64,000 nt of DNA from Flavobacteriales bacterium (GTDB lineage Bacteria > Bacteroidota > Bacteroidia > Flavobacteriales_F > PHOS-HE28): positions 3,765,284-3,829,283 of the forward strand of contig CP065018.1 of NCBI GenBank assembly GCA_016700415.1. Reading direction: 5' to 3'. The position numbers were made by a program, and so were the translations under genes. The notes below the pieces were generated by a model, which saw only the letters and a program-made list of their open reading frames with translations, made no database searches and was not told where the DNA came from. Shown here in pieces: positions 7,628 through 63,794 of the stretch; the stretch's first letter is position 1; the number at the start of each line of letters is the position of its first letter.

Positions 7628-9014
7628 GGGAGTATTCCGAAATGTGTGTCAATCTGCACTGAGGCACGGTGACATTCTCCTGGCCCCAAGCCAAAGGAGA
7701 ATGTCTCCGTGCCGGATCCTCAGACCAGCACATGGGCCAATCTTTCGGGGTACATGTTGCTCAACGACTGAAGGATCTGCGGCCAGCTGCGGACCTTTCT
7801 CTTCCAGCTTTTCTCGTTGTGCTTAAGTGTCAAATATAATTGCTTCTCCAAGGCACTTTCGCTGATGAACGCACCCTTGGTCTTGGTGGCCTTGCGAAGA
7901 ATGCGGTGCAGGGCCTCCACCGGGTTCGTGGTGTAGATCACCCTGCGTATGGCATCGGGATGATCAAAGAACGGGCTTAGCTCGCACCAGTCTTTCTCCC
8001 ACTTGGCCGCGATCTCCGGATATCTCCCTACCCATTCCCGCTTGAACTCCTGGAGCTTTTCCCAGGCCGCTTCGGGACTATCCTGCTGGTAGATCGAACG
8101 CAGTCCTTGGCAAACTGTCTTGTAGTCCTTCCAAGAGACGAACTTCAAGCTGGTGCGCACCATATGGACGATGCAGCGCTGTACGACCGCTCGCGTGAAT
8201 ACGCCTTGGATCGCCTCGCTGAAGCCGTTCAGGCCGTCCACGCTGAAGAACAGCACGTCCTTTACCCCGCGGTCCTTGATGTTCTCCAGAACGCGCGCCC
8301 AATGGCGTGCTCCTTCCGCATCGCCGATGAACAAGCCGAGAACATCACGTTCCCCGTCCATCCTCACCCCGTATACCGAGTAAACGGCTTTGGTCAACAC
8401 CTTTCTATTCTCCCGGACCTTGTAGTGGACCGCATCGAGATAAATGACCACGTACACCTCTTCCAGCGGGCGGTTGCGCCATGTCTCGATCTCCTCGAAC
8501 ACCCGGTCGGTGATCGAGCTGATGAACGATGGGGAGTAGCTCACCCCGTACATCTTCTTTAGATGGTCCCCAATGTCCTCGTAGCTGGTGCCCTTGCCGT
8601 ACAGATGCAGGATCTGGTTCTCCAGTTCGGGGGCCAGCGACCGGTCCCACTTCTTGATGATCGTCGGCTCAAAACTGCCGTTGCGGTCTCGCGGAGGCCT
8701 GACCGAAACGGGACCCAGTGCCGTTCTCACGGTCTTGTCGGTGTAGCCGTTGCGCCTATTGCTCCGCTTCTTCTCCTGGTCCAAATGCGCGTCCATCTCC
8801 CCTTCGAAGGCGGCGGAAAGCAGGCGGCCGATCATGCCCGTGAGCACACCGTGTTCTCCGATCAGGCCCTTGCCTTCTGTCAATCCTTGGATGGCTTCTT
8901 GCTCGAACTTGGCGTAGTCGAACGCCTTCTCTTTTTCAACTTTTCTCTTTTTCATGGGGCAAGTTTCTGAATGGTTTGTCAAACTATCCTTGACACACTT
9001 TTCAGAATACTCTC
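7628..9014. mobile_element. IS256-family insertion sequence (about 1387 bp) with 8-bp target-site duplication AAACATAG
   Basis: Imperfect terminal IRs GGGAGTATTCCGAAATGTGTGTCAA (7628-) and reverse complement of ...TTGACACACTTTTCAGAATACTCTC (-9014); identical direct repeats AAACATAG at 7620-7627 and 9015-9022; encodes mutator-type transposase. Confidence 0.85.
7720..8955 (-). CDS. IS256-family (mutator-type) transposase
   Basis: MKKRKVEKEKAFDYAKFEQEAIQGL...YLDAVHYKVRENRKV...FFSVDGLNGF...CIVHMVRTS; DDE transposase of IS256 family; track ORF extends to 8982 (MTNHSETCP...) which would run into the right IR. Confidence 0.85.
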   Translation of the reverse strand: MKKRKVEKEKAFDYAKFEQEAIQGLTEGKGLIGEHGVLTGMIGRLLSAAFEGEMDAHLDQEKKRSNRRNGYTDKTVRTALGPVSVRPPRDRNGSFEPTIIKKWDRSLAPELENQILHLYGKGTSYEDIGDHLKKMYGVSYSPSFISSITDRVFEEIETWRNRPLEEVYVVIYLDAVHYKVRENRKVLTKAVYSVYGVRMDGERDVLGLFIGDAEGARHWARVLENIKDRGVKDVLFFSVDGLNGFSEAIQGVFTRAVVQRCIVHMVRTSLKFVSWKDYKTVCQGLRSIYQQDSPEAAWEKLQEFKREWVGRYPEIAAKWEKDWCELSPFFDHPDAIRRVIYTTNPVEALHRILRKATKTKGAFISESALEKQLYLTLKHNEKSWKRKVRSWPQILQSLSNMYPERLAHVLV

Positions 9015-11532: not shown

Positions 11533-12522
11533 TTGACAAACCTCGCCACTCGTGCAATCCCCTTGGCGCTTGTGGCTGCTCTCGCTGTGAAAGCGACGGC
11601 ACAAAACCTCGTTCCGAACCCGAGCTTCGAGGATACGGCCCGATGTAATGCGGAATACGACCCGGTGCTTTTATCTGCACCACCATGGTTCAAACCGACC
11701 ACCGCCTCTTCGGATATTTACGATAATGATCTTGAACAACTCTGCGGTATCGCATGGGATCCCGCGAATCCGGACGTTCAGGCCAGTGGTTTCCAATTTG
11801 CGCGAACAGGAACTCGCTTTGCAGGTGCCTTCCATTGGTTTGGTGCAAATAGTTCTGACTCGAAAGACTATTTTACCGTTAAGCTAACTGAGGCTCTGAT
11901 TGAGCAAACGGCCTACGACGTTTCGCTATACTACAGCCGAGCTGACGGATATGCCTTTGCCACAGACCGCATCAGTGTCTTTTTCGGGCCGGACAGTTTC
12001 TATGTGCATGATTACCGCACTTTGCATGTGCAGCCGCAAGTTGACTTGATGGACCCGAATAACGAGTACCTAACTAACGCAGAGGATTGGGTCCTGCTAA
12101 CGGGTTCATTTGTCGCAACGGGAGGCGAACGGTACATGACCATCGGTTCTTTCTTGGACAGTTCCCAAGTGAACGGCACGACCGCACCCACAGGAAATCT
12201 GCCATACGCCTATTACTACTATGATGACATTGCGGTGTCGCCAGTACATCAATCAGGTATCGATGAATTGGAATTTTCCGGAGCAGTAACGGGTGACGGC
12301 AACCTGCGGTTGATAGGATTGTCGGATGGCACCTATGTAGCGCGATTGATCGATCGAATTGGTCGGGTCATTCAAGAATTCAAACAAGTCCGCTCCATGG
12401 CAGGGCATGCGGACATCGCAATAGGGGACCAAGGCATGGCTCACGGGCTATACTTGGTATCGGTTGAGTCAAGCGAAGGGAGGGGGGCCACCCGGTTCGT
12501 TTATACCGGTAGGCGGCAATGA
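11533..12522 (+). pseudogene. T9SS-secreted protein gene (signal peptide, beta-rich body, C-terminal T9SS sorting domain) interrupted in codon 7 by the IS3 element
   Basis: Track ORF begins at TTG 11533 with partial signal peptide TNLATRAIPLALVAALAVKATAQ; C-terminus LRLIGLSDGTYVARLIDRIGRVIQEF...GLYLVSVESSEGRGATRFVYTG resembles T9SS type-A CTD; authentic start is upstream of the IS at 10240. Confidence 0.65.
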
Positions 12523-12540
12523 GCGTAACACCTCACAACA

Positions 12541-14854
12541 ATGAAGATCGCAATACTTTTGGCTGCTTTGGCCATTCTGGCGAGCACCTCAACTAAGGCA
12601 CAAGGGCCTCCGGACTGGAACACGATCGGTAACAATACTTTGAATCCGGTGACAAGTTTTTTGGGAAACACGGATGGCATTCCCATCAACTTTCGCACGA
12701 ACAACGTACTGCGGATGCGTCTCAACGAAAGCCTGCCCGGCCAGCCGGTGAACAACTTCCCGAACGTGGACCTGAGCGGTCACCTTGGGATCGGGGCGCC
12801 GGTGCCACCGCAAGCGCTGAGCTTTCTGCACATCAACAACAATGGCAGCTTTTTCGCGGGCTTCCGGCCGTGGATGCGCAGGGGTGAGCATGTCCGAGAA
12901 CACGGACTGGATGTACGTGGGTGCGAAGAACCAGGGCGAGGACCTCGTTGATGCCGTGATCAACTGGGGTGACAATAAGGAAGCCGACCCTACCTATGGT
13001 CCGGATGCGTTGCGTTTCATTTTCACGCGAACGATGAGCAACATCAATATCGCCTCCCAGATGGACGGATTGGAGTTGGCCCGTATCATTCCGGACCCCT
13101 CTGGGAATCAGGGTTACTTCGGCATTGGGGATTACTTCACCGCTGCGACGAACCCTTCGGAGCGGTTGGATGTGCTGAATGGCCGTGTGGCGATCCGGCA
13201 ATTGCCCACGGACCCGGTAAGCGCCAGCATGGAGGCCGTTGTCCTGAACACCACCACCGGCGTGCTGGAACACCGTCCGTTCCCCACCACCACCGGTGGC
13301 CCGGATTGTGATTGGACCCCGATCGCTGGTGCGATCAATGAACTCCGCACAGCGAATGCACCGGCAGGGACCGTGGGTGCTTGCCCTGATCAACGCTGGA
13401 AGGTACAGATCGGGACGCCATCGACCGCAGGGCCATACAGGCTAACAGTCGGGGTGAACCAGGTCACCTGTGCGAATTGTGGGATAACCGGAGGGACCAA
13501 TGTGGATGTTAAAGGTGATGGGGGCGGCAGTGTGAATGGTTCAAACATACTTGTAGAGTCCGCAACTTCCGGGTCCGCCAATCAGATCAAGGGGCTTAAA
13601 ATCGTGACCCGCAATGCGGGGTCGATCAACTACGGCATAGAGGTGGATGCGACGAACAATGTTGCGAATATAAGCAGCTCTGTTTATGGGGCATGGATCA
13701 AAGCAGTGAACCAAGCGGGAGGGAAAACCGCACAATTGTATGGCCTGCGTGGCAGTGCTGAGGCAACGGATGTTAATTCGGCTACACTTGCGAAGGGGGT
13801 GTGGGGTAGGGCGGTCAATGGGATTACAAACGATGGCTTACGTGGGGAAGCCACTGGAGGGAGCAGCTCCACAAACTATGGAGTTTACTCGGATGCCTCA
13901 AGTGGTGTGATGAACTATGGGTTGCATGCTAAAGGGTCCGGTGCCACGGGTTCCACCAACTATGGGGTCTGGACCTTAGGGCAAAACGGGACCACGAACT
14001 ATGGGGTCCTCGCAAATGCGATCGGTGGTGGGGGAAGCACCAACTATGGGGTCTGGGCCACCGCGTCGGGTGGGGCCACCAACTGGGCCGGGTACTTCAA
14101 AGGTCGAGTGATGATCACGGACTCGGCTTGGGTGCTGGGCAACCAGATCGTGACTTCGGACGCGAACCTGAAAACGAACGTGGAGGACCTTACCGGGGCA
14201 TTGGACAAGGTGTTGCAGATGCAGCCGAAAACGTATGAGTTCATTCAGGATGCTCTGCCACAGGCGCACCTGACCGAAGGGCCGCAAGTCGGCCTTATCG
14301 CTCAAGAACTGGAGCCCATCTTGCCGGAGGCCGTGGGGCATACCACAGTGCCTGCGGAACTGGACAGTCTGGGAGCGGAGATTTTTCCGGCCGTAGCGAT
14401 CGCGGGGATCGACTATAACAAAGTGACCCCGGTGTTGATCGGTGCGATCAAAGAGCAGCAAGCGATGATCGATCAGCAACAAGCCACCATTGCCCAACTC
14501 CAAGACCAGATCAACCATTGTTGCGCAACACAAGGTGATGCGGCCCAAAGAGGAAGTGCGGAACAAGGGTCCATGCCCCAGGAGAACGAACTCCAAGAGC
14601 AGCGCCTGTTGATCATCCCCAACCCGGTGGCGGACCTCACCACGTTGGAATACTACGTGCCCAAAGCGGGCAAGGTGAGCTTGCAGGTGAGCACCAGCGA
14701 TGGGAAGCCTTTGGCCACCTTGCGTGAGGAACTGGCCGAAACCGGTGCATACAACTACAGTTGGAACACCACCAAGTTGGCGGCGGGCACCTACTTCTGC
14801 ACCTTCATGCTGGACGGTGCCGTGGTGGTGAAGCGTGCGGTGAAGGTGAAGTGA
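12541..14854 (+). CDS. tail-fiber-like T9SS cargo protein with NYGV repeats, peptidase-S74-type intramolecular chaperone domain and T9SS C-terminal domain; apparent frameshift near 12850
   Basis: 12541 ORF gives signal peptide MKIAILLAALAILASTSTKAQ plus N-terminal region; switches frame (+1) to the 12842..14854 ORF; repeated STNYGV motifs; TSDANLKTNVEDL...GLIAQELEPILPEAV...IDYNKVTPVLIGAIKEQQAMIDQQQATIAQLQDQI (endosialidase-chaperone-like); C-terminal LLIIPNPVADLTTLEYYVP...GTYFCTFMLDGAVVVKRAVKV = T9SS CTD. Confidence 0.6.
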
Positions 14855-14948: not shown

Positions 14949-16505
14949 CTATGTCGTTTCCGCGATCGCCCGCGCCACTCGCAAACCGTCCATCGCAGCG
15001 CTGACGATACCTCCGGCATAGCCTGCACCTTCAGCACACGGGTACAACCCACGCACTTGCGGATGCTCCAGTGTTTCCAGATCGCGGGGAATGCGGACCG
15101 GCGAGCTGGTGCGCGATTCCACGGCCACCAGCACGGCCTCGTTGGTGCGGTAGCCGTGCATTTTTTCGCCGAAGGCTTTCAACCCTTCACGCAGACGGGA
15201 TGCGATCGCTTGGGGCAGCACCTCGTCCATTGTTGCGGGGACGATCCCCGGCGGGTAGCTGCACGCGGGAAGGTCAATGCTGAGGCGACGTCCGATAAAA
15301 TCCTCCATGCGTTGCGCGGGCGCGGACTGCCGCTCGCCGCCGAATTTCCAGGCGTTGCGTTCCAGGCTCTGCTGCCAGCGCAGGCCCGCCAAGGCGGCGT
15401 CCGGCCCTTTGCTTTCCGGGAGGTCCGCCGGGTCCACGGCCACCACGATGCCGCTGTTGGCGAAGGGATTGTTGCGCTTGCTGGGGCTCCAGCCGTTGGT
15501 GACCACCTCGCCGGGCGCGGTGGCGCAGGGCGCGATGATGCCGCCGGGGCACATGCAGAAGCTGTACACGCCGCGCCCTTCCACCTGCTGCACCACGCTG
15601 TAGCTGGCGGGCGGCAGGAAGGGGTCGCGGACGGTGCTGTGGTAGCGGATCCGGTCGATCACCGATTGCGGATGCTCGATGCGCACGCCCATGGCGAATG
15701 ACTTCGCCTCGATCGCGATGCCTTTGGCGTGAAGCAGCTCGAAGATGTCGCGGGCGGAATGGCCCGTGGCCAGCACCACCGAAGTGGCGAGGACCTCATC
15801 GCCCTGTGCCGTACGCACGCCGTGTATGCGACCGTCGGTGATCAGGAAGTCGTTCACGCGTGTGCCGAATCGCACTTCGCCGCCCGCCGCTTCAATGGCC
15901 TCGCGCATAGCGGTGACGATCTCGGGGAGCTTGTTGGTGCCGATGTGCGGATGGGCGTCCACGAGGATGTCCGGCGAGGCACCGAACGCGGTGAAGGTCT
16001 TCAGCACCGCCGCCACATCGCCGCGCTTGTCGCTGCGGGTATAGAGCTTACCGTCGCTGTAGGTGCCCGCGCCGCCTTCACCGAAGCAGTAATTGCTGTC
16101 GGGGTCCACCACGTGATCGCGGTTGATGGCGGCGAGGTCGCGGCGCCGTGCGCGGACGTCCTTGCCGCGCTCCAGAATGATGGGCCGTAGCCCGTGTTCG
16201 ATGCAGCCCAACGCCGCGAATAGGCCGGCAGGTCCGCAGCCCACGATGATCACGGGTTCCGCCTTGCTGACATCGGGCAGTTCCGGCGGTGCTTCCGGCA
16301 GTTCCGGGAATTCTTCTTCCGTGGAAACTTCCACACGCAAGCGCACCAAGGGAAGTTTGCTGCGCGCATCGATGGAGCGTTTCACCACGCGTGCGCCCTT
16401 TACTTGTTCAAGCTTCACCGAACAGGCTTCAGCGGCTGCTTCGCGCACCAGTGCCGGGTCGGCGGCCTCTTGCGGAGGAAGGGCGATGTCCACGGTGCGG
16501 TTCAT
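14949..16505 (-). CDS. FAD-dependent oxidoreductase (uncharacterized FAD-dependent dehydrogenase family)
   Basis: 518 aa; Rossmann dinucleotide motif VIIVGCGPAGLFAAL, ...VLATGHSARD..., C-terminal GLYPCAEGAGYAGGIVSAAMDG. Confidence 0.75.
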   Translation of the reverse strand: MNRTVDIALPPQEAADPALVREAAAEACSVKLEQVKGARVVKRSIDARSKLPLVRLRVEVSTEEEFPELPEAPPELPDVSKAEPVIIVGCGPAGLFAALGCIEHGLRPIILERGKDVRARRRDLAAINRDHVVDPDSNYCFGEGGAGTYSDGKLYTRSDKRGDVAAVLKTFTAFGASPDILVDAHPHIGTNKLPEIVTAMREAIEAAGGEVRFGTRVNDFLITDGRIHGVRTAQGDEVLATSVVLATGHSARDIFELLHAKGIAIEAKSFAMGVRIEHPQSVIDRIRYHSTVRDPFLPPASYSVVQQVEGRGVYSFCMCPGGIIAPCATAPGEVVTNGWSPSKRNNPFANSGIVVAVDPADLPESKGPDAALAGLRWQQSLERNAWKFGGERQSAPAQRMEDFIGRRLSIDLPACSYPPGIVPATMDEVLPQAIASRLREGLKAFGEKMHGYRTNEAVLVAVESRTSSPVRIPRDLETLEHPQVRGLYPCAEGAGYAGGIVSAAMDGLRVARAIAETT

Positions 16506-16608
16506 GGGGAAGACATGAGTCGGGAGTCTGGAGTCGTAAGTCCGACCGTCCGATCACCACTCCGCATTATCAGCGATCATCCGCTCTTTCAGCGTCATCT
16601 GCGTTCCA

Positions 16609-17340
16609 CTACCCTTCGAACGTGAACGTCAGCACATAGGTCTTGGTGCGGAGGCTCTGTATCGGTCTGCTGAATCGCGTGTCATCGTCCACCACTAAGT
16701 TTGGGATGCCGATGCCGGTCTTCAGCTCGATGCCGAACTTGAAGTAGGGGAGGAACATGTCGATACCGGCACCGGCCTCCGCGCTGTAGTCGTATTTTTT
16801 CAGTTTCACCACGATGTCCTCGTCGATGTCGTTATTCACGTCCTTCTTGCTGGCCATGTCGATGCCGAACTTGCCGCCACCGATCACATAGACCGCGAAG
16901 TTGTTGATGCGGTCGCTGCGGAATTTCAGCAGGAGCGGGAATTCGAGATAAGTGCTCTCGATGGGTTTCTGGAAGCTGGAGGTCGTGCCGTCCGCCTTGC
17001 GGAAGGAGTACTTAAGGATGCGGTCCTGGAAGGAGAGTGTGGGCAGGAAGCGCAGGCTGAGGTTGTTGGTCATGTTCAGCGAGGCCACGATGCCGAGGTT
17101 GAAACCGGGCTGCTTCACGTGGTCGATCACCAGCACGGAATCCGCGAAGGGCGCGGTGGGCTTCAGCGTCATGAAGAAGTCACTGGTGTTGTAGCTGAGC
17201 AGGAAGCCGAAGTGGAAGCGGTGCAGGTCGAAGTTGGGCAGGTTCTGGACCTTCACACCGGTGCGTTGGGCGGAAGCCGGGGCCGCGATGCAGAGGAGCA
17301 GGAGCGGAGCGAGGAGGTAGGAGAGCTTGAGGAAACGCAT
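16609..17340 (-). CDS. PorT-family outer-membrane beta-barrel protein
   Basis: MRFLKLSYLLAPLLLLCIAAPASAQ signal peptide then alternating-hydrophobic beta-strand pattern, C-terminal ...TYVLTFTFEG; start at 17338-17340 rather than track 17385. Confidence 0.6.
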   Translation of the reverse strand: MRFLKLSYLLAPLLLLCIAAPASAQRTGVKVQNLPNFDLHRFHFGFLLSYNTSDFFMTLKPTAPFADSVLVIDHVKQPGFNLGIVASLNMTNNLSLRFLPTLSFQDRILKYSFRKADGTTSSFQKPIESTYLEFPLLLKFRSDRINNFAVYVIGGGKFGIDMASKKDVNNDIDEDIVVKLKKYDYSAEAGAGIDMFLPYFKFGIELKTGIGIPNLVVDDDTRFSRPIQSLRTKTYVLTFTFEG

Positions 17341-55851: not shown

Positions 55852-57267
<1,416 letters not shown>

Positions 57268-57336: not shown

Positions 57337-57370
57337 TTATCCGCGTCCATCCGTGTCCATCCGTGGTTCG
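57337..57370. repeat. partial copy of the inner arm of the 17392..17618 MITE-like element
   Basis: ATCCGCGTCCATCCGTGTCCATCCGTGGTTCG vs 17531..17563 CATCCGTGTACATCCGTGTCCATCCGTGGTTCC; no TIRs present here. Confidence 0.6.
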
Positions 57371-57386
57371 TTCTAAAATCGACAAC

Positions 57387-58763
57387 ATGCAACACAAGAC
57401 CATCATCGAGCCCTTCCGCATCAAGAGCGTGGAGCCCATCAGCGTGGGCACCGAAGCGGAGCGCACGCAATACCTGAAGGACGCCCACTACAATCCGTTC
57501 CTGCTGCGATCGGACAATGTGGTGATCGACTTCATGACCGATAGCGGCACCAGCGCCATGAGCGCCCGGCAATGGGCGGGCATGATGGAGGGCGATGAGG
57601 CCTATGCCGGTTCGCGGAGCTGGGAGCGCATGGAGCGGGAAGTGCGGGACCTCACCGGCATGGCGTACATCCTCCCCACGCACCAAGGCCGCGCCGCGGA
57701 ACGCATCATCTATGGCCACTTGGGCGGCCCGGGCAAGGTCTTCATCAGCAACACGCACTTCGATACCACACGCGCCAACATCGAGTTCAGCGGCGCCACC
57801 GCCATCGACATCCCCATCGCCGAAGGGAAGGACACGGCCTTGGAGCATCCGTTCAAGGGCAACATGGACGTGGGCGAGCTGGACCGCTTGCTGAAGGAGC
57901 ACAAGGGCCATGTGGGCGCGGTGATCCTCACGGTGACCAACAACAGCGGAGGCGGCCAGCCGGTGAGCATGGCCAATGCGGAGAGCATCGCCGCGATCTG
58001 CAAGCGGCACGGTGTGCTCTACTTGCTGGATTGCTGCCGCATCGCGGAGAACAGCTGGTTCATCAAGCACCGGGAGGAAGGCATGGAAGGCTTGACCTAT
58101 CGCCAGATCGCGCAACGCATGTTCGCCCTGACCGATGGCGCCGTGATGAGCGCCAAGAAGGACGCGCTGGTGAACATGGGCGGCTTTCTGGCCTTGAAGG
58201 ACGAGGTCTTGGCCGAGGCCTGCATCAACCTCTTGATCATCACGGAGGGCTTTGCGACCTATGGCGGATTGTCCGGCCGCGACATGGAGGCGATCGCGAT
58301 CGGCCTGCAGGAGATCTTCGATCCGCACTATCTGGACTACCGGATCAAGAGCACCCTTTTCCTCGGGAAGAAGATGCACGAGCTGGGCGTTCCGCTGATG
58401 ATGCCCATCGGTGGGCACGCGGTGTACGTGGACGCGAAGAAGCTGTATCCCCACATCCCGCCGCATGAATATCCCGGGCAGGCCCTGGTGGGCGAACTGT
58501 ACAAGCTGGGCGGCATCCGCACGGTGGAGATCGGCTCCGTGATGTTCGGCACCTACAACGCCGACGGCACGCTGAATCCCGCGCCCATGGAGCTGGTGCG
58601 CTTAGCCATTCCGCGCCGGGTGTACACGCAGAGCCACATCGAATACGTGGTGGAGACCTTCGAGGAGATCATGAAGCAGCGCGACCGGGTACGCGGGTTG
58701 AAGATCACCAAGGAGCCGCGTTTCCTGCGCCACTTCACCGCGCACTTCGAGCCATTGACATGA
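57387..58763 (+). CDS. tnaA: tryptophanase (beta-eliminating lyase, TnaA-like paralog)
   Basis: MQHKTIIEPFRIKSVEPI..., NTHFDTTRANIE (TnaA-type vs [11 protein letters not shown]), [13 protein letters not shown]-terminal PRFLRHFTAHFEPL like E. coli TnaA PKVLRHFTAKLKEV. Confidence 0.8.
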   Translation: MQHKTIIEPFRIKSVEPISVGTEAERTQYLKDAHYNPFLLRSDNVVIDFMTDSGTSAMSARQWAGMMEGDEAYAGSRSWERMEREVRDLTGMAYILPTHQGRAAERIIYGHLGGPGKVFISNTHFDTTRANIEFSGATAIDIPIAEGKDTALEHPFKGNMDVGELDRLLKEHKGHVGAVILTVTNNSGGGQPVSMANAESIAAICKRHGVLYLLDCCRIAENSWFIKHREEGMEGLTYRQIAQRMFALTDGAVMSAKKDALVNMGGFLALKDEVLAEACINLLIITEGFATYGGLSGRDMEAIAIGLQEIFDPHYLDYRIKSTLFLGKKMHELGVPLMMPIGGHAVYVDAKKLYPHIPPHEYPGQALVGELYKLGGIRTVEIGSVMFGTYNADGTLNPAPMELVRLAIPRRVYTQSHIEYVVETFEEIMKQRDRVRGLKITKEPRFLRHFTAHFEPLT

Positions 58764-59215
58764 GCAACGGACCGATGGACCGGCCGGTGCGTGTCACCAA
58801 GCGCTTCACCTTCGAGATGGCCCATGCGCTGCGGTGCCACGATGGCCTCTGCGCCCAGATCCATGGGCACTCGTACGTGTTGGACGTTACGTTGATCGGG
58901 AAGCCGCGCAATGAGCCGGAACACCCGAAGGACGGCATGGTGATCGACTTCGCCGAGCTGAAGAAGCTGGTGAATAAGGCCGTGGTGGAGCATTACGACC
59001 ATGCACTGGTGCTGCACGAGAAGGACCGCGACCAGGCCTCCTCCGGCCACGAACTCTTCGGCCGGACGCGCTTCACGCCATGGCAGCCCAGTTGCGAGAA
59101 TGTGCTGCTGGACATCGTGGAGCGCTTGCAGAAGGCACTGCCGGAGAAGGACGCGCTGTACGCCGTCCGCCTTCAGGAAACGGCCACGAGCTGGGCGGAG
59201 TGGGGGCGGGGTTGA
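58760..59215 (+). CDS. queD: 6-carboxy-5,6,7,8-tetrahydropterin synthase / 6-pyruvoyl-tetrahydropterin synthase family
   Basis: VTKRFTFEMAHALRCHDGLCAQIHGHSYVLDVTLIG...GMVIDFAELKKLV...HYDHALVL (Zn-binding CxxxHGH motif). Confidence 0.75.
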   Translation: MSNGPMDRPVRVTKRFTFEMAHALRCHDGLCAQIHGHSYVLDVTLIGKPRNEPEHPKDGMVIDFAELKKLVNKAVVEHYDHALVLHEKDRDQASSGHELFGRTRFTPWQPSCENVLLDIVERLQKALPEKDALYAVRLQETATSWAEWGRG

Positions 59216-59220
59216 TCAGA

Positions 59221-59607
59221 TCAAGCCTTCACGAGCGGCACATCGTATTGCGCGAAGTGCGGGTCGGCCGTGAGCAGTTGCATGCCTTCGGCCTTGGCTT
59301 GGGCGATCAACATTCGGTCGAACGGGTCGCGGTGGTGTAAGGGAAGCTTGGATAGTTCGAGTATATGTGGCATTGTAACGGGCCGGGGAACGAACCCTCC
59401 GTTGGTGAATGACTTGAAGAAATCCTCGATCGGGCTATGGAGTTCCAGCTTCCCGAGCGCATGCTTGATCCCGATCTCCCACAATGATGCAATGCTCACG
59501 AGACATTCATGCTTTGGGTTCTCGATGATCGCTCTAGTGGCAGGGGTGCATTCCCGTTGACCCAGAACGAACCAGAGGAAGACATGGGTGTCCAGCAACA
59601 CCTTCAT
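59221..59607 (-). CDS. vapC: PIN-domain toxin VapC
   Basis: MKVLLDTHVFLWFVLGQREC...IASLWEIGIKHALGKL...DPFDRMLIAQAKAEGMQLLTADPHFAQYDVPLVKA. Confidence 0.8.
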   Translation of the reverse strand: MKVLLDTHVFLWFVLGQRECTPATRAIIENPKHECLVSIASLWEIGIKHALGKLELHSPIEDFFKSFTNGGFVPRPVTMPHILELSKLPLHHRDPFDRMLIAQAKAEGMQLLTADPHFAQYDVPLVKA

Positions 59608-59837
59608 TCCATGTATTCTTTGAAGTCATCAAGCGGGTCATCGAAGTCCTTGGAAATGGTGGCCATGCCTTTGGCGATGCCGAATACACGCGGCTTCTTT
59701 GCGTCGTTATCCTGTGGAACCCCTGCCTGCTTCTTTTGCTCCCATTGTTCCATGAGTGAAGCAATGAAGTCAAGCACCTTCTTCCTCACCTCCTCCGGAA
59801 GTGAGTCGAGCTGGATGTATGGGTCGTGCGTGGCCAT
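59604..59837 (-). CDS. type II antitoxin partnered with VapC (VapB-like)
   Basis: 77 aa, ATGA overlap with vapC; 70% identical to second copy at 62013..62237. Confidence 0.65.
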   Translation of the reverse strand: MATHDPYIQLDSLPEEVRKKVLDFIASLMEQWEQKKQAGVPQDNDAKKPRVFGIAKGMATISKDFDDPLDDFKEYME

Positions 59838-59854
59838 ATTTCAAAGATAGGCGA

Positions 59855-59905
59855 TCAGGACTTCACGAGCGGCACGTTGTAATGAGCGACATTTGGGTCG
59901 ACGGC
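59855..59905 (-). pseudogene. 3' remnant of a second vapC copy
   Basis: Minus-strand ...DPNVAHYNVPLVKS* matches C-terminus of intact VapC (DPHFAQYDVPLVKA*) and is spaced from the upstream antitoxin stop as in the intact pair; upstream sequence unrelated to VapC. Confidence 0.55.
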
Positions 59906-60149
59906 CTTACCGGCGCTCGGCGTAGTGCATGCCGCTCCGAAGTAACGCTGTGCTGCAGTCTGAAGACTGCCTATGGCTCCTGTGCATCTGTCCACTCCGG
60001 GGAGCAGGCCCACCAGTGACCCCTGCCGTTCATTCAGGAACCCATATTCCGGTTGGCAGGGAACACTGGCGGGAGCGGGGGGAAAATGATTGGTAAATGA
60101 TTTACCACTAAATGCCAATGTGCTCCGTTCATATTATTTTTTTAAAAAA

Positions 60150-60851
60150 TTAAACATTTACTCCAAAAAGGTAACCAACTAACGCAGAAAGTACCATTGC
60201 AATTGTTCCCCAAATTGTAATGCGTAAGATAGCTTTTTTTATACTTGACCCACCTGTTTTTGCAGCTGTTGTTCCAAGTATTATTAAGAATATAGTAGTA
60301 AAGCCATACAACCAATATTCCATTCCTTTTACTGGTGCAAATAGAATTACTAAAAGTGGTAAAACACCACCAACAGTAAATGCAGCACCTGATGCTATTG
60401 CAGCTTGAATTGGATTAGCTTGACTTATTTCATTGATGCCTAATTCATCTCTAATGTGAGTTCCTAATGCATCTTCTTCTGTCAATTCAATTGCTACTTG
60501 CATTGCGGTTACTTTTTTAAGTCCACGCTTCTCATAGATTTGAGCCAAAATATTTAGTTCTTCTTTTGGCATTTCTTTGAGTTCTTTTATTTCTCTTTCG
60601 ATGTCTGCTTTTTCTGTATCTGTTTGCGAACTTACAGAAACATACTCGCCTGCTGCCATTGATAAAGCACCTGCTACAAGTCCAGCGACTGTTGCTAACA
60701 ATATTGGTTCTCTTGTCGAACTTGCTGCTGCAACACCAATAGCAAGACTTGAAATAGAAATAATTCCGTCATTTGCCCCCAAAACGGCTGCTCTTAACCA
60801 GTTACTTCGGTGTATGTAATGATTGTCTAAATAGTTGTCGATTGTTATCAT
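60150..60851 (-). CDS. VIT1/CCC1-family (vacuolar iron transporter-like) membrane protein
   Basis: 233 aa; WLRAAVLGANDGIISISSLAIGVAAAS...ATVAGLVAGALSMAAGEYVSVSSQ...; AT-rich codon usage unlike host. Confidence 0.7.
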   Translation of the reverse strand: MITIDNYLDNHYIHRSNWLRAAVLGANDGIISISSLAIGVAAASSTREPILLATVAGLVAGALSMAAGEYVSVSSQTDTEKADIEREIKELKEMPKEELNILAQIYEKRGLKKVTAMQVAIELTEEDALGTHIRDELGINEISQANPIQAAIASGAAFTVGGVLPLLVILFAPVKGMEYWLYGFTTIFLIILGTTAAKTGGSSIKKAILRITIWGTIAMVLSALVGYLFGVNV

Positions 60852-60884
60852 TGTCTTGTTGTTGTCGGGTTGCTTTAAAATTAC

Positions 60885-61016
60885 GCCTAACGGTTTGCAG
60901 CTACCCGAAGGGCGGGATTTTTACCAATAAACCTCATTCGGAGCACTGAACTTTCGGCTACCACAAATGTGTCTGTGGAGCACGAAACCCCGCCTTTTGG
61001 GTAGGTGCTGTTAGCA
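60885..61016 (-). other. integron attC recombination site of the OXA cassette (R''-L''...L'-R')
   Basis: Minus strand: R'' TGCTAAC (61016-61010) - AGCAC - L'' CTACCCAAAAGGCGGGGT ... L' ATCCCGCCCTTCGGGTAG - 9 nt - R' GTTAGGC (60891-60885); R'' is exact complement of cassette-start core G|TTAGCA at 61857-61851. Confidence 0.75.
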
Positions 61017-61026
61017 GCAGCAATTC

Positions 61027-61842
61027 TCATTTGTCAGTCAGTTTAAGGTCGTCAAGTATTAAATAAACAATGTCAATTCGTGCATTTGCAAAGTCCTTGT
61101 TGTTTAAGTCAGCCGATTGAATGCAATTAGCAAAATAATAAACTTTGTTTTCAGTCTCCAAATAGCCAACATACCAACCAACATCTTTGTTGTCTTGTCC
61201 GCCCCAACCAGTTTTTGCTCTTACTACATAGTCCAACGTGTCCTTTGCAATCATTATGTTTTTTACAATGTCAACTGAACGCTGTGAAAAAGGAAGTTGG
61301 TTGTCGTGAAGTCGCTTTAAAAAGTCAATTTGTTGTTTGGGTGAAATACGAAGTCCGCCAGTCAGCCAAAACTTGTCAATGCCGCCTGATGTGTCTGCGT
61401 TGCCATAGTTTGCTTTGTCAAGCCAGTATTTCATTTGCTGTCCGCCTACTCGTCTGGCAAGTTCTTGATAATACCAAACAGTCGAATTTTTGAAAGCTGT
61501 TTTTAAGTCGTGGTCGGTGTTCCAGTTTGGATTTTGTCTGGTTACGCTGTCCCACGGAATTACAAAATTCTCGTCTTTAATTACTCCCGTCTCAAGTCCG
61601 ATAAGAGAGTTACAAATTTTAAAAGTCGAAGCAGGTGAAAAAGTTTGCTCGAACTGGTTTTGGTTGTAAAAAATATAATTGTCGGTTTGAGGGTCATAAA
61701 GCACGAAAGAACCGTTAACATTAAACTGGTCGTAATACTTTTTAAAATCGTTACGAATTTCAGTCGTCTGTTTTTGCTTACAGGCTGTCAGTCCAATAAC
61801 AGCTAAAGTCAATATTAATATGGTCTGTTTCATTGTCGTCAT
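61027..61842 (-). CDS. class D (OXA-type) beta-lactamase, lipoprotein signal
   Basis: 271 aa; signal LTLAVIGLTAC; class D motifs PASTFKI (S-T-F-K), ANYGNAD (Y-G-N), RAKTGWG (K-T-G); low-GC cassette-borne. Confidence 0.85.
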   Translation of the reverse strand: MTTMKQTILILTLAVIGLTACKQKQTTEIRNDFKKYYDQFNVNGSFVLYDPQTDNYIFYNQNQFEQTFSPASTFKICNSLIGLETGVIKDENFVIPWDSVTRQNPNWNTDHDLKTAFKNSTVWYYQELARRVGGQQMKYWLDKANYGNADTSGGIDKFWLTGGLRISPKQQIDFLKRLHDNQLPFSQRSVDIVKNIMIAKDTLDYVVRAKTGWGGQDNKDVGWYVGYLETENKVYYFANCIQSADLNNKDFANARIDIVYLILDDLKLTDK

Positions 61843-62012
61843 ATTGTTGCTGCTAACTAGTCGGTTGACGCTATATGTGGTTTATTTCCGGACTTGGTTT
61901 GTGCTTGGAGTTGGGTTTATCGCACTATTTGGGCATGTAAAGCCCAATAGGCTTTCGGTCTCCGAAGGTCGTCCAATGTAGCGCAGCTTTGCTGTTACCC
62001 GATGTGAGCGTT

Positions 62013-62237
62013 TCATTCCATGTACTCCTTGAAGTCATCCAGGGGCTCGTCGAAATCATCTGGAATAGTTGCCATTCCTTTGGCCAACCCGGCGATCAGC
62101 TTTTTCTTTGGCGACACTTCTTGTGCTGGGTTATTCCGCTCCCATTCCACCATCAGTTCCGTGATGAACGCAAGCACCTTCTTCCTCACCTCCTCCGGGA
62201 GTGAGTCGAGCTGGATGTATGGGTCGTGGGCGGCCAT
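62013..62237 (-). CDS. type II antitoxin (VapB-like), orphan second copy
   Basis: MAAHDPYIQLDSLPEEVRKKVLAFITELMVEWERNN...GMATIPDDFDEPLDDFKEYME; cognate vapC start replaced by unrelated sequence. Confidence 0.6.
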   Translation of the reverse strand: MAAHDPYIQLDSLPEEVRKKVLAFITELMVEWERNNPAQEVSPKKKLIAGLAKGMATIPDDFDEPLDDFKEYME

Positions 62238-62292
62238 ATTTCAAAGATAGGCCGATCAGCTCCAAGGCTGCTTGGAGCGTGGACTTACAACC

Positions 62293-62682
62293 TCACACCC
62301 TTTCCACCACGCGCTTCAAGGCATCGCGCACTTGTGTCGCGAGGGGCTCTATGGCCGGATTGTCCACGGCGCTCATGGCGGCCGCGGGGTCGATGGCCGC
62401 CACTTGATGCTTTCCGTCGGGCAGTTGCCGGAGGATGACATTGCACGGTAGCATGGTGCTGATGAGCGGCTCCAAGGTGACCACCTGGTCCGCGAACACC
62501 GGATTGCAGGCGCCCAGGATCAGGTGCGGCAAATGGTCCTTGTTCAGCTTTTTCTTCAATGTGGCCTGCAGGTCGATCTCCGTGAGCACACCGAAGCCTT
62601 CGGTCTTCAGCGCTTCCACGGTGCGTTCCTTCAAGGTGGCCATGTCGGTGTTGGCGATGGTACGGGTGATGGCGTAGTTCAT
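62293..62682 (-). CDS. DUF302 domain protein
   Basis: MNYAITRTIANTDMATLKERTVEALKTEGFGVLTEIDLQATLKKKLNKDHLPHLILGACNP. Confidence 0.65.
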   Translation of the reverse strand: MNYAITRTIANTDMATLKERTVEALKTEGFGVLTEIDLQATLKKKLNKDHLPHLILGACNPVFADQVVTLEPLISTMLPCNVILRQLPDGKHQVAAIDPAAAMSAVDNPAIEPLATQVRDALKRVVERV

Positions 62683-62786
62683 GGTGATGTGGGTTGATCC
62701 CATACGGGGATGTGCAGGTGGTACAAAGGTCCGCCGGATACAGCGGACGGTATGTGATGAAGGTCACGGTTGCGAGGGATCCCGCT

Positions 62787-63794
62787 TCAGCCGCCGATGG
62801 CCTGCATGGCCCGGTTCCCGGTATGGTTCCCCGGATCGCTGAACTCCTCCAAGGATTCCATACCGCCGCGTGCCTTCTTCTTATGAAGGACGTTGCTGCG
62901 GATCAGCTCGGTGATGTCCTCTCCCTTGCGGTAGGCGCTCAACAGGTCGCTTTCCGTGCCGGAGAAGAGGCAGTTTTTCATGCGGCCGTCGGCGGTAAGG
63001 CGCAGCCGGTTGCACGAATCGCAGAACGGGTTGGTCACCGTGCTGATGACCGCGAACGATCCCTGGTGCCCTTTGATCCGGTAGTGTTTGGCCGTGTCGT
63101 GGGGGCCGTCGATCATCCGTTCGATGTTGTCCGCTCCGAACCGGGTCCCCACCGTGTCAAGGACCTCCTGCAAGGAGACGCCCTTGCTCCAGTCCCACTT
63201 GTTCCCGTCAAAGGGCATGAACTCGATGAAACGGACCCGGACGCCCTCGTCGGCGGTCCATTGCACAAAGTCGCCGATCTCGTCGTCGTTCGTGCCGCGG
63301 ATCAATACCGTGTTCACCTTCACGTCGAAGCCCCTGTCCATCAGCAGGCGGATGTTGCCAATCACCTCCTTGTAATGGTCGCGCCGCGTGATCCGCTGCA
63401 TGCGTTCCGGCCTCAAGGTGTCCAAGCTCACGTTGACATTGCGGACCCCGTATCGTTCGAACACGTCGATGAAGCGGTCCACCAGTACGCCGTTGGTGGT
63501 GATGGCGAGCTCTATGGGCAGCTTGGACAGGCCCTCGATGATCTCCGCCGCATCGTTCCGCACCAGCGGCTCGCCACCGGTCAGGCGGATCTTGCGCACG
63601 CCCATGGAAACGAAGGTGCCTGCGATGGCAAGCAGTTCCTCCTGCCGCATGAACTCCTCCCGGGGCCGAAGTGCGATACCCTCCTCGGGCATGCAATAGA
63701 AGCACCGCATGTTGCAGCGCTCCGTAAGGGAGATGCGCAGGTAGTCGTGCCTTCTTCCGAAAGTATCTGTCAACAGGGTGCTGCGGTCGGTCAT
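62787..63794 (-). CDS. moaA: GTP 3',8-cyclase (molybdenum cofactor biosynthesis protein A)
   Basis: LRISLTERCNMRCFYCMP (radical SAM CxxxCxxC), ...IRLTGGEPL..., C-terminal FCDSCNRLRLTADG second cluster. Confidence 0.85.
   Translation of the reverse strand: MTDRSTLLTDTFGRRHDYLRISLTERCNMRCFYCMPEEGIALRPREEFMRQEELLAIAGTFVSMGVRKIRLTGGEPLVRNDAAEIIEGLSKLPIELAITTNGVLVDRFIDVFERYGVRNVNVSLDTLRPERMQRITRRDHYKEVIGNIRLLMDRGFDVKVNTVLIRGTNDDEIGDFVQWTADEGVRVRFIEFMPFDGNKWDWSKGVSLQEVLDTVGTRFGADNIERMIDGPHDTAKHYRIKGHQGSFAVISTVTNPFCDSCNRLRLTADGRMKNCLFSGTESDLLSAYRKGEDITELIRSNVLHKKKARGGMESLEEFSDPGNHTGNRAMQAIGG

Follow-up and report, generated by a model that had tools for sequence, protein, structure and literature searches.

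A stranded class D beta-lactamase cassette in a Flavobacteriales chromosome, probably moved by a recombinase that lacks the IntI-specific domain

In this study we have analysed a gene unit on the minus strand of a 64-kb stretch of DNA (contig CP065018.1; the whole stretch is called the window), whose host is a high-GC "Flavobacteriales bacterium" lineage of metagenome-assembled genomes (MAGs) from activated sludge. The unit consists of an OXA-like class D beta-lactamase gene with a folded site of 132 nt downstream of it, and the results indicate that it is very probably a mobile cassette with a structured recombination site. The explanation that we favour, to which we give a probability of about three in four, is that the cassette belongs to a pool shared among Bacteroidota and Ignavibacteria, is moved by a non-classical recombinase and has become stranded in this genome. 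The stranding can be seen directly, as there is one site and no recombinase within 64 kb. The cassette works like an integron cassette; two classical features that were tested for, the extrahelical bases of the site and the IntI-specific domain of the recombinase, are lacking. The acting recombinase, the strand used, the route of arrival, the mode of expression and the substrate spectrum are the parts of this explanation that we infer. An earlier note, made from the letters of the same DNA, had described the unit as an OXA-type cassette with a textbook attC in a context like that of a cluster of attC sites without an integron integrase (CALIN), and the coordinates that it gave are all correct (GTTAGCA at 61857-61851, TGCTAAC at 61016-61010, GTTAGGC at 60891-60885 and a site of 132 nt). 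The parts of the unit, including the open reading frame (ORF), are as follows.

60891..61856, minus strand: complete gene cassette, from the TT of G|TTAGCA at 61856 to the G of R' at 60891 (blastn homology limits, co-inheritance of ORF and site)
61843..61857, minus strand: 5' end of the cassette, (G)TTAGCAGCAACAAT, an inverted repeat of 61010-61024
61027..61842, minus strand: blaOXA-like class D beta-lactamase gene, 271 aa, with a lipoprotein signal (NCBIfam, Pfam Transpeptidase, PDB 6nhs)
60885..61016, minus strand: attC-like folded site, 132 nt (model R1, covariation, fold)
Parts of the site, R'' side: R'' TGCTAAC 61016-61010, L'' 61004-60989, then the variable centre
Parts of the site, R' side: L' 60916-60901, unpaired CTGCAAACC 60900-60892, R' GTTAGGC 60891-60885

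The evidence that the unit is mobile comes first of all from its limits in other genomes; about 115 loci were fetched in all, and they bear labels such as L041. When the same gene was compared by blastn in its other contexts, the shared DNA was found to start at 61856/61857 in at least 15 loci with unrelated flanks and to stop at 60884-60889 in at least five independent contexts (61856..60886 in L007 and L009-L011, 61857..60884 in L030, and to 60889 in L035-L037 and L042). Since these limits are the two G|TT junctions and the flanks beyond them are unrelated, the unit is a discrete cassette that moves between contexts, with the boundaries that had been predicted for it. Within the window, the start of the cassette and the R'' box are complementary at 14 of 15 nt (61843-61857 against 61010-61024) and bracket the ORF exactly. 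The same relation is found in 31 cassettes that are flanked by two sites, in which, over the ten bases that follow G|, the cassette agrees with its own R'' (as reverse complement) at a mean of 7.3 of 10 positions, mostly 8-9, while the match to the neighbouring R'' reaches a mean of only 5.1 of 10. A longer repeat around TGCTAAC/GTTAGCA had been named by the earlier note as something that would speak against an attC. The repeat is indeed longer, at 15 nt, but such extended pairing is expected of a circularised cassette and so does not refute one.

The complementarity between start and R'' is silent on which hairpin body accompanies the ORF, and hence all OXA loci were compared in pairs. Five pairs share only the downstream site, and no pair shares only the upstream one. 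In L041 and L043, for example, the ORF is 99% and the downstream site 98% identical while the upstream flanks are unrelated, and the OXA cassette stands first beside a recombinase in one of these genomes and inside an array in the other. This downstream-only sharing leads to the conclusion that the mobile unit is the ORF with its 3' site, exchanged at a G|TT crossover. Related hairpins trail unrelated genes in dense same-strand arrays, with 18 sites in 20 kb of L054 (a Saprospiraceae contig), and at least 12 in L030 (a Ferruginibacter contig). A search by nhmmer returned 79 related sites on the gene strand; R1, which is a covariance model of the site family, returned 76 sites in the fetched loci. 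Taken together, nearly all are on the gene strand.

The folded site itself belongs to a well-defined structural family. It folds best on the plus strand, at -30.3 kcal/mol (z = -4.3). Model R1, which was made from an alignment of 54 distinct related sites, gives it 121.9 bits (E = 3e-27), the next best score in the 64 kb being 11 bits; neither nhmmer nor R1 with its filters off finds a second site in the window. The family consensus reads GCTAAC-A-nn-[16-bp stem]...[stem]-CAAACC-GTTAn, and as to the boxes only AAC and GTT are conserved across the family. Compensatory double changes occur in all 16 stem pairs, 87.4% of the cells are paired as against 65% in shuffles (0 of 500 shuffles reach 87.4%), and the covariation score is 0.523 as against at most 0.081 when the partners are slid. 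The only interruptions of the stem are 1x1 mismatches (A.C on the gene strand, and hence G.T wobbles on the opposite one), and the asymmetric internal loop that adjoins the R box (about 2 nt versus 6 nt, CAAACC) is conserved. An Rfam scan of 58900-62800 gave no match above noise.

Hairpins after genes can be terminators, and a different explanation would be that the hairpin is a terminator or a repeat of the repetitive extragenic palindromic (REP) type that travels with genes, the whole block having come by generic transfer and illegitimate recombination. That the low-GC block ends on its far side in an illegitimate junction within an ORF agrees with this, as do the linker upstream of the cassette, which is no site, and the VIT1-family segment next to the cassette, of which no homolog is found in any fetched array. 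On the gene strand, however, no T-run follows the stem, many independent genomes have their homology breakpoints at G|TT, and the same cassette is found beside a recombinase in one genome and array-internal in another. Moreover, AAC/GTT boxes bracket a covarying stem and the cassette starts complement their own R''. We regard the terminator or REP explanation as quite improbable.

Although the site resembles an attC in its layout, it does not have textbook attC geometry. A canonical attC carries two or three extrahelical bases on its R''-L'' arm (Bouvier et al. 2009). For comparison we used eight class 1 sites (dfrA14, arr-2, cmlA5, aadA1, aadA2, a DUF3788 cassette, aacA4 and blaOXA-1); a covariance model from these eight was dropped, as they are too few and too variable in length, and arm asymmetry was measured instead by aligning the R''-side arm to the reverse complement of the R'-side arm in 45 family sites and the eight canonical ones. 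The window site has no extra base on the R'' arm and four on the R' arm. In the family the means are 0.42 on the R'' arm and 4.13 on the R' arm, the latter forming a contiguous block of about 4 nt adjoining the R box, whereas in the canonical sites they are 2.12 on the R'' arm and 1.00 on the R' arm, with 2-3 single bases on the R''-L'' arm. The net asymmetry is thus -3.7 in the family, negative in 43 of 45 sites, and +1.1 in the canonical set (n = 8). The R' box GTTAGGC fits GTTRRRY, and R'' TGCTAAC departs from RYYYAAC at its first two positions. When R1 was run on the class 1 integrons L027 and L028, it found no canonical attC at E <= 0.001. The description "textbook attC" given to the site by the earlier note is not supported on these grounds, and also because the recombinases of the arrays lack the domain that defines IntI.

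That domain, an additional IntI-specific one near patch III, is what defines integron integrases (Messier & Roy 2001, as relayed by Cury 2016). A tblastn search with IntI1 found no integrase in the window, as the earlier note had said, and over all loci it gave only two matches, in L041 and L030. In L041, 135 bp separate the end of the recombinase gene from AAAC|GTTAGCAGCAAC, where the OXA cassette starts, and this cassette is followed by an ABC-F ribosomal-protection cassette with a site of its own; the recombinase gene of L030 heads its array. A third case is L116, a complete genome of 7.86 Mb, in which a recombinase 53% identical to that of L041 is followed by same-strand small genes with R1 scores of 122, 49 and 39 bits. 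Over the whole core, the array recombinases have about 35% identity to IntI1; they measure about 450-570 aa with an N-terminal extension of about 200 aa, and lie upstream of the array in the orientation of the cassettes. The 44-aa IntI-specific domain is missing and the RKHRHY catalytic set intact in all 11 members examined. The L041 recombinase falls below the cutoff of the integron-integrase model TIGR02249 (230 bits versus 265) and passes that of the XerA-type model NF040815 (233 bits versus 220). This is a large family: 6,702 relatives are found at E < 1e-30, cultured Cytophagales among them. We consider it likely that this family of recombinases without the IntI patch is the mobilising enzyme of the cassette.

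These results also bear on the more conventional explanation, in which the unit would be an ordinary integron cassette with a divergent attC, moved by a classical IntI and left as a lone attC after secondary-site insertion or loss of the integrase. The R' box and the G|TT crossover are those of integrons, as are the layout of ORF and 3' site, the variable centre and the arrays, and the CAAAC before R' is also found in the attCs of aacA4 and OXA-1; canonical integrons are also known in Bacteroidota, Ignavibacteriae and Chlorobi (PMC9024848; PMC8618304). On the other hand, no protein with the IntI patch is found in the window or in the roughly 115 fetched loci, the only recombinases that adjoin the arrays are without the patch and below the integron-integrase cutoff, and the sites are without extrahelical bases and have the opposite asymmetry. 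An ordinary integron cassette is, in our judgement, unlikely, albeit the strongest of the competing explanations.

Several observations on the recombinase loci may be added here. In L112 (Catalinimonas niigatensis) two elements break up the array that lies downstream of the recombinase (coordinates 11977-13991 and 15866-16861): one belongs to the IS91 family and carries a small tyrosine recombinase of its own, the other is an IS110 element. The array also holds two HigB/HigA modules. All four metagenomic contigs with recombinase homologs, L108-L111, end 90-260 bp downstream of the gene. Such ends fit assembly breaks at repeated sites, and short-read assemblies therefore probably under-report these platforms.

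The gene carried by the cassette starts at the ATG at 61842 and stops at 61029-61027, and its product passes the curated class D model NF012161 bla_class_D_main (278.3 bits versus a cutoff of 250) and matches the Pfam Transpeptidase domain. The active-site motifs are STFK at residue 72, STV at 120, YGN at 146 and KTG at 210, and a lipobox, LTAC, is found at residues 18-21. The nearest solved structure is the class D enzyme PDB 6nhs (E = 3e-70), with which the catalytic motifs align. The assignment to class D is thereby borne out, while a placement among the named OXA families is not, as the product reaches no curated cutoff of OXA-48, OXA-10, OXA-2, OXA-1089 or others (the best is OXA-1089-like, 251 bits versus 580, and the others listed also lie far under theirs). 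Among the proteins of 72,556 plasmids the closest is 45.5% identical, and OXA-48 and OXA-10 are about 38-39% identical. Relatives of 70-93% identity are abundant in environmental metagenomes, and the MAGs that host them belong to Cytophagales, Chitinophagaceae, Saprospiraceae, Flavobacteriales, Bacteroidales, Sphingobacteriales, Ignavibacteriaceae and Melioribacter; a spread of this breadth in itself indicates that the gene is mobile. Sequence comparison thus places the predicted enzyme in a new, unnamed class D beta-lactamase lineage. A motif scan of the gene strand gave a single -7 box of the Bacteroidota type (TAnnTTTG), TATCTTTG at 62249-62242, which precedes the antitoxin gene vapB1 upstream of the cassette. 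Read-through from vapB1 is therefore the likely mode of expression, and the OXA gene is probably transcribed from the vapB1 promoter. A sigma-70 promoter scan gave fewer sites than in shuffles and is uninformative for this phylum.

The surroundings of the cassette in the window can be read against a related strain, L020, whose flanks are 93-96% identical and from which the block of the OXA gene and the neighbouring VIT gene is absent. There, a DUF302 gene is directly followed by 234 bp and then by a convergent PTPS gene. Compared with L020, the window contains two insertions, with 174 bp of native intergenic sequence lying between them. The first, insertion A (62288..60084), is made up of vapB1, the linker, the OXA cassette, the VIT1-family gene and the first 17 codons of a membrane ORF; insertion B holds the tail of a vapC gene, vapB2 and vapC2. 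The features around the cassette, all on the minus strand, are the following.

62013..62237, minus strand: vapB1, a DUF2281 antitoxin gene without a toxin (NCBIfam TA_VapB, 70.6 bits, cutoff 60)
61858..62012, minus strand: linker of 155 nt, the 5' partner of the cassette junction (no R1 match, no fold with z = -1.5 and -1.2, no homologs)
60084..60890, minus strand: second low-GC unit, VIT1 gene and cut membrane ORF (Pfam VIT1, 223 bits; homology to L013-L018)
59910..60083, minus strand: native intergenic DNA between the two insertions (95% identical to L020 8421-8594)
59909..59223, minus strand: second insertion relative to L020 (vapC 3' remnant, vapB2, vapC2)
59900-59855, minus strand: vapC 3' remnant of 46 nt
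59837..59604, minus strand: vapB2
59607..59221, minus strand: vapC2, a PIN toxin gene

GC content is 0.382 in the ORF, 0.402 in the cassette, 0.515 in the site, 0.484 in the linker and about 0.60 in the host, which supports the earlier proposal that foreign low-GC DNA was captured by a high-GC Bacteroidota chromosome. An assembly chimera that joins a low-GC Bacteroidota contig to a high-GC one could also produce so abrupt a fall in GC (0.60 to 0.38), of which one edge lies within an ORF. Such a chimera was ruled out, and we give it practically no weight: the identical protein with the same gene order and junctions is present in at least 11 independent assemblies, it is found in assemblies from ENA, JGI, Logan and NCBI made from different samples and in six NCBI MAGs, and the contigs bearing the arrangement reach 1.68 Mb (L026, fetched) and 3.85 Mb on record.

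The VIT1-family gene (60851..60150) is joined to the cassette at the R' crossover and is followed by the first 17 codons, from 60131, of an ORF for a membrane protein of 164 aa, cut at about 60084. This segment (window 60887..60081) has 80% DNA identity to the Chitinophagaceae loci L013-L018, in which the 164-aa ORF is complete and a bestrophin gene is present as well. As these relatives continue past 60084, the right edge in the window is a truncation, with TTCC/CCCC microhomology, and no cassette boundary. The 5' junction of the OXA cassette, by comparison, coincides with the universal boundary of the cassettes, and this speaks for a junction made by a recombinase. Three identities were tried for the sequences around these junctions and rejected. 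The linker is not the attC of a vapB1 cassette, as it might seem by eye from an R''-like GGGTAAC and short L''/L' repeats; it has no R1 match, no fold and no homologs. Nor do the linker and the 174-bp stretch make up a split vapC1 (155 + 231 nt, about 387 nt), for only the last 46 nt are vapC-like and the 174 bp are native. The linker is likewise not accepted as an attI remnant, its resemblance to the attI-like region of L041 being weak and non-significant.

Taken together, these results would fit the following course of events. Cassettes made up of an ORF and a 3' hairpin would be exchanged by crossover at the G|TT of the R' box, as in integrons, and the mover would be an IntI-related tyrosine recombinase that has all catalytic residues and is without the domain that reads extrahelical bases. 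Sites without extrahelical bases match a recombinase without the domain for reading them. Most economically, a multi-unit circle or a fragment of an array, carrying the OXA unit together with the neighbouring VIT block, would have inserted at a non-attC site, and a deletion would have followed. The block would have landed between the convergent DUF302 and PTPS genes, a spot that also collects vapBC modules; its 5' edge would be a site-specific junction and its far edge an illegitimate junction or the outcome of a later deletion. That a once larger array decayed in place is a less likely route. Beyond this locus, we put forward, at even odds, that such arrays represent a second lineage of integron-like platforms in Bacteroidota and Ignavibacteria, independent of classical IntI and so far undescribed. 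In such a lineage, polarity would be encoded by the asymmetric internal loop by the R box and not by extrahelical bases, the enzyme would be a recombinase related to Xer and IntI with a new N-terminal domain, and standard finders would miss or misclassify the platforms.

A number of observations weigh against the proposal of a pool cassette moved by a non-classical recombinase. The link between recombinase and array is one of adjacency and is seen in only three loci, out of about 80 with an OXA or recombinase gene whose flanks could be used, and a fourth locus, L112, has one weak site. At the window itself, the right edge of the low-GC block is not site-specific, so that the arrival was at least partly not mediated by a recombinase, and the linker, to which the cassette is joined at its 5' end, is not an attC and cannot be recognised as an attI. 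A search of metagenomes for the pre-insertion allele gave no match with one pattern and, with a second, three chance matches to unrelated DNA. The call that the sites are "not canonical" depends on direct feature tests and on a model built in this analysis. Finally, in about a dozen loci the homology to the window ends just past R'' (about 61009) and a different site body follows. L029, L031, L032, L039-L041, L043, L044, L048, L052 and L054 share the ORF up to R'' only, with a sharp breakpoint at the R'' box, and in L006 the OXA gene carries the homogeneous site type of that array. Such replacement of the site body after R'' is a pattern that the simple cassette model does not predict. It has been shown that a Vibrio cholerae repeat (VCR) site from which the extrahelical bases are removed has a relaxed strand choice and that some of its crossovers move to the R'' box (Bouvier et al. 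2009). By analogy, we speculate that sites naturally without extrahelical bases might shift crossovers to R'' and so swap site bodies between ORFs. A unit of reverse orientation, in which the upstream hairpin travels and the crossover lies at R'', was also considered on account of the inverted asymmetry and the breakpoints near 61009; it was rejected as the main mode by the pairwise comparison of loci (none versus five).

It is useful to set the cassette beside the systems that it most resembles. Like the OXA cassettes of class 1 integrons (blaOXA-10, blaOXA-1 and blaOXA-732), it is an ORF without a promoter followed by a 3' imperfect palindrome with AAC/GTT boxes, it has a G|TT crossover and a start that complements its own R'', its relatives stand head to tail on one strand, and the enzyme class is the same. 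It differs from them in its protein, at most 38-39% identical to OXA-10 or OXA-48 and at most 45.5% to any plasmid protein, in a site family without extrahelical bases and with the opposite asymmetry, and in a recombinase without the IntI domain, whose gene points the same way as the cassettes. The superintegron of Vibrio with its VCR sites shares the long arrays, the near-homogeneous sites within an array (as in L054 and L006), the toxin-antitoxin cassettes and the heterogeneous small genes, but phylum, type of recombinase, site geometry and orientation of the recombinase all differ, the canonical intI being divergent from its array. Elements with a single attC and CALINs likewise consist of cassette DNA without a nearby integrase, possibly from secondary-site insertion (PMC4889954). 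However, a CALIN requires at least two attC sites (PMC9024848), whereas one is detectable in the window, of a type that may not be what tools such as IntegronFinder model, and the next unit is a truncated gene block and not a second cassette; the term "CALIN-like" used by the earlier note does not therefore apply. With the Xer/XerA-type recombinases (NCBIfam NF040815) the array-associated recombinase shares the passing of their model and the absence of the IntI patch; it differs in its similarity to IntI1 over the core, in its N-terminal extension and in its position, at the head of arrays and not at dif. Complete integrons are very rare in Bacteroidetes according to IntegronFinder 2.0 (PMC9024848). 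The literature that could be searched contains no description of such arrays, which is absence of evidence and not proof of novelty.

In surveys, integrons are defined through two traits, the IntI-specific domain and the canonical geometry of attC. If our reading is right, a large mobile gene pool would be invisible to current tools, including a beta-lactamase lineage with 70-93% identity over several orders and two phyla, and the sites would offer a natural and testable counter-example to the accepted rule by which these recombinases choose strand and orientation. Platforms of this kind would already circulate class D beta-lactamase, ABC-F ribosomal protection and APH genes among wastewater and environmental bacteria, and assessments of resistance risk in wastewater Bacteroidota would underestimate gene mobility. 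In the present host, an abundant population of activated sludge, a new predicted OXA lineage has become fixed in the form of a stranded cassette. Its predicted recombination site is intact, and therefore any cell with a compatible recombinase could pick the cassette up again. Other putative resistance genes lie close to the OXA gene in two of the loci: the second cassette after OXA in L041 (11112-12698) encodes an ABC-F ribosomal-protection family protein (395 bits versus a cutoff of 380), and a gene for an APH-family phosphotransferase lies just upstream of OXA in L012 (6703-7725).

Some minor observations were made on the neighbouring DNA. The VIT1/CCC1-family iron/manganese transporter is 90-95% identical as a protein across Flavobacterium, Chitinophagaceae, Saprospiraceae and Bacteroidia, and this unusually high identity in distant hosts suggests that the VIT gene spreads horizontally too, outside the arrays examined. 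The two vapB copies, at 62013-62237 and 59604-59837, are diverged (74-84% nucleotide identity) and lie 2.4 kb apart, with a PIN toxin gene only beside the second, and L020 has a vapC-like tail (8595-8617) that is more degenerate still. It looks as if foreign modules had repeatedly landed and decayed in the spot between the convergent DUF302 and PTPS genes. The native 174-bp stretch at 59910-60083 contains strong hairpins (CCAGTGTTCCCTGCC...GGCAGGGGTCACTGG; GCAGTCTTCAGACTGC) without an Rfam match, which may be bidirectional terminators or a small RNA. On the Chitinophagaceae chromosome L015, a weak R1 match of 31 bits (2403-2529) follows a DUF433/PIN-like toxin-antitoxin pair a few kb from the VIT gene, and this may be another stranded cassette. 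Beside the PTPS gene of the window stand two tandem paralogous genes for beta-eliminating lyases of the tryptophanase/tyrosine phenol-lyase family (55885-57267 and 57363-58763), which are conserved in all strains and unrelated to the cassette.

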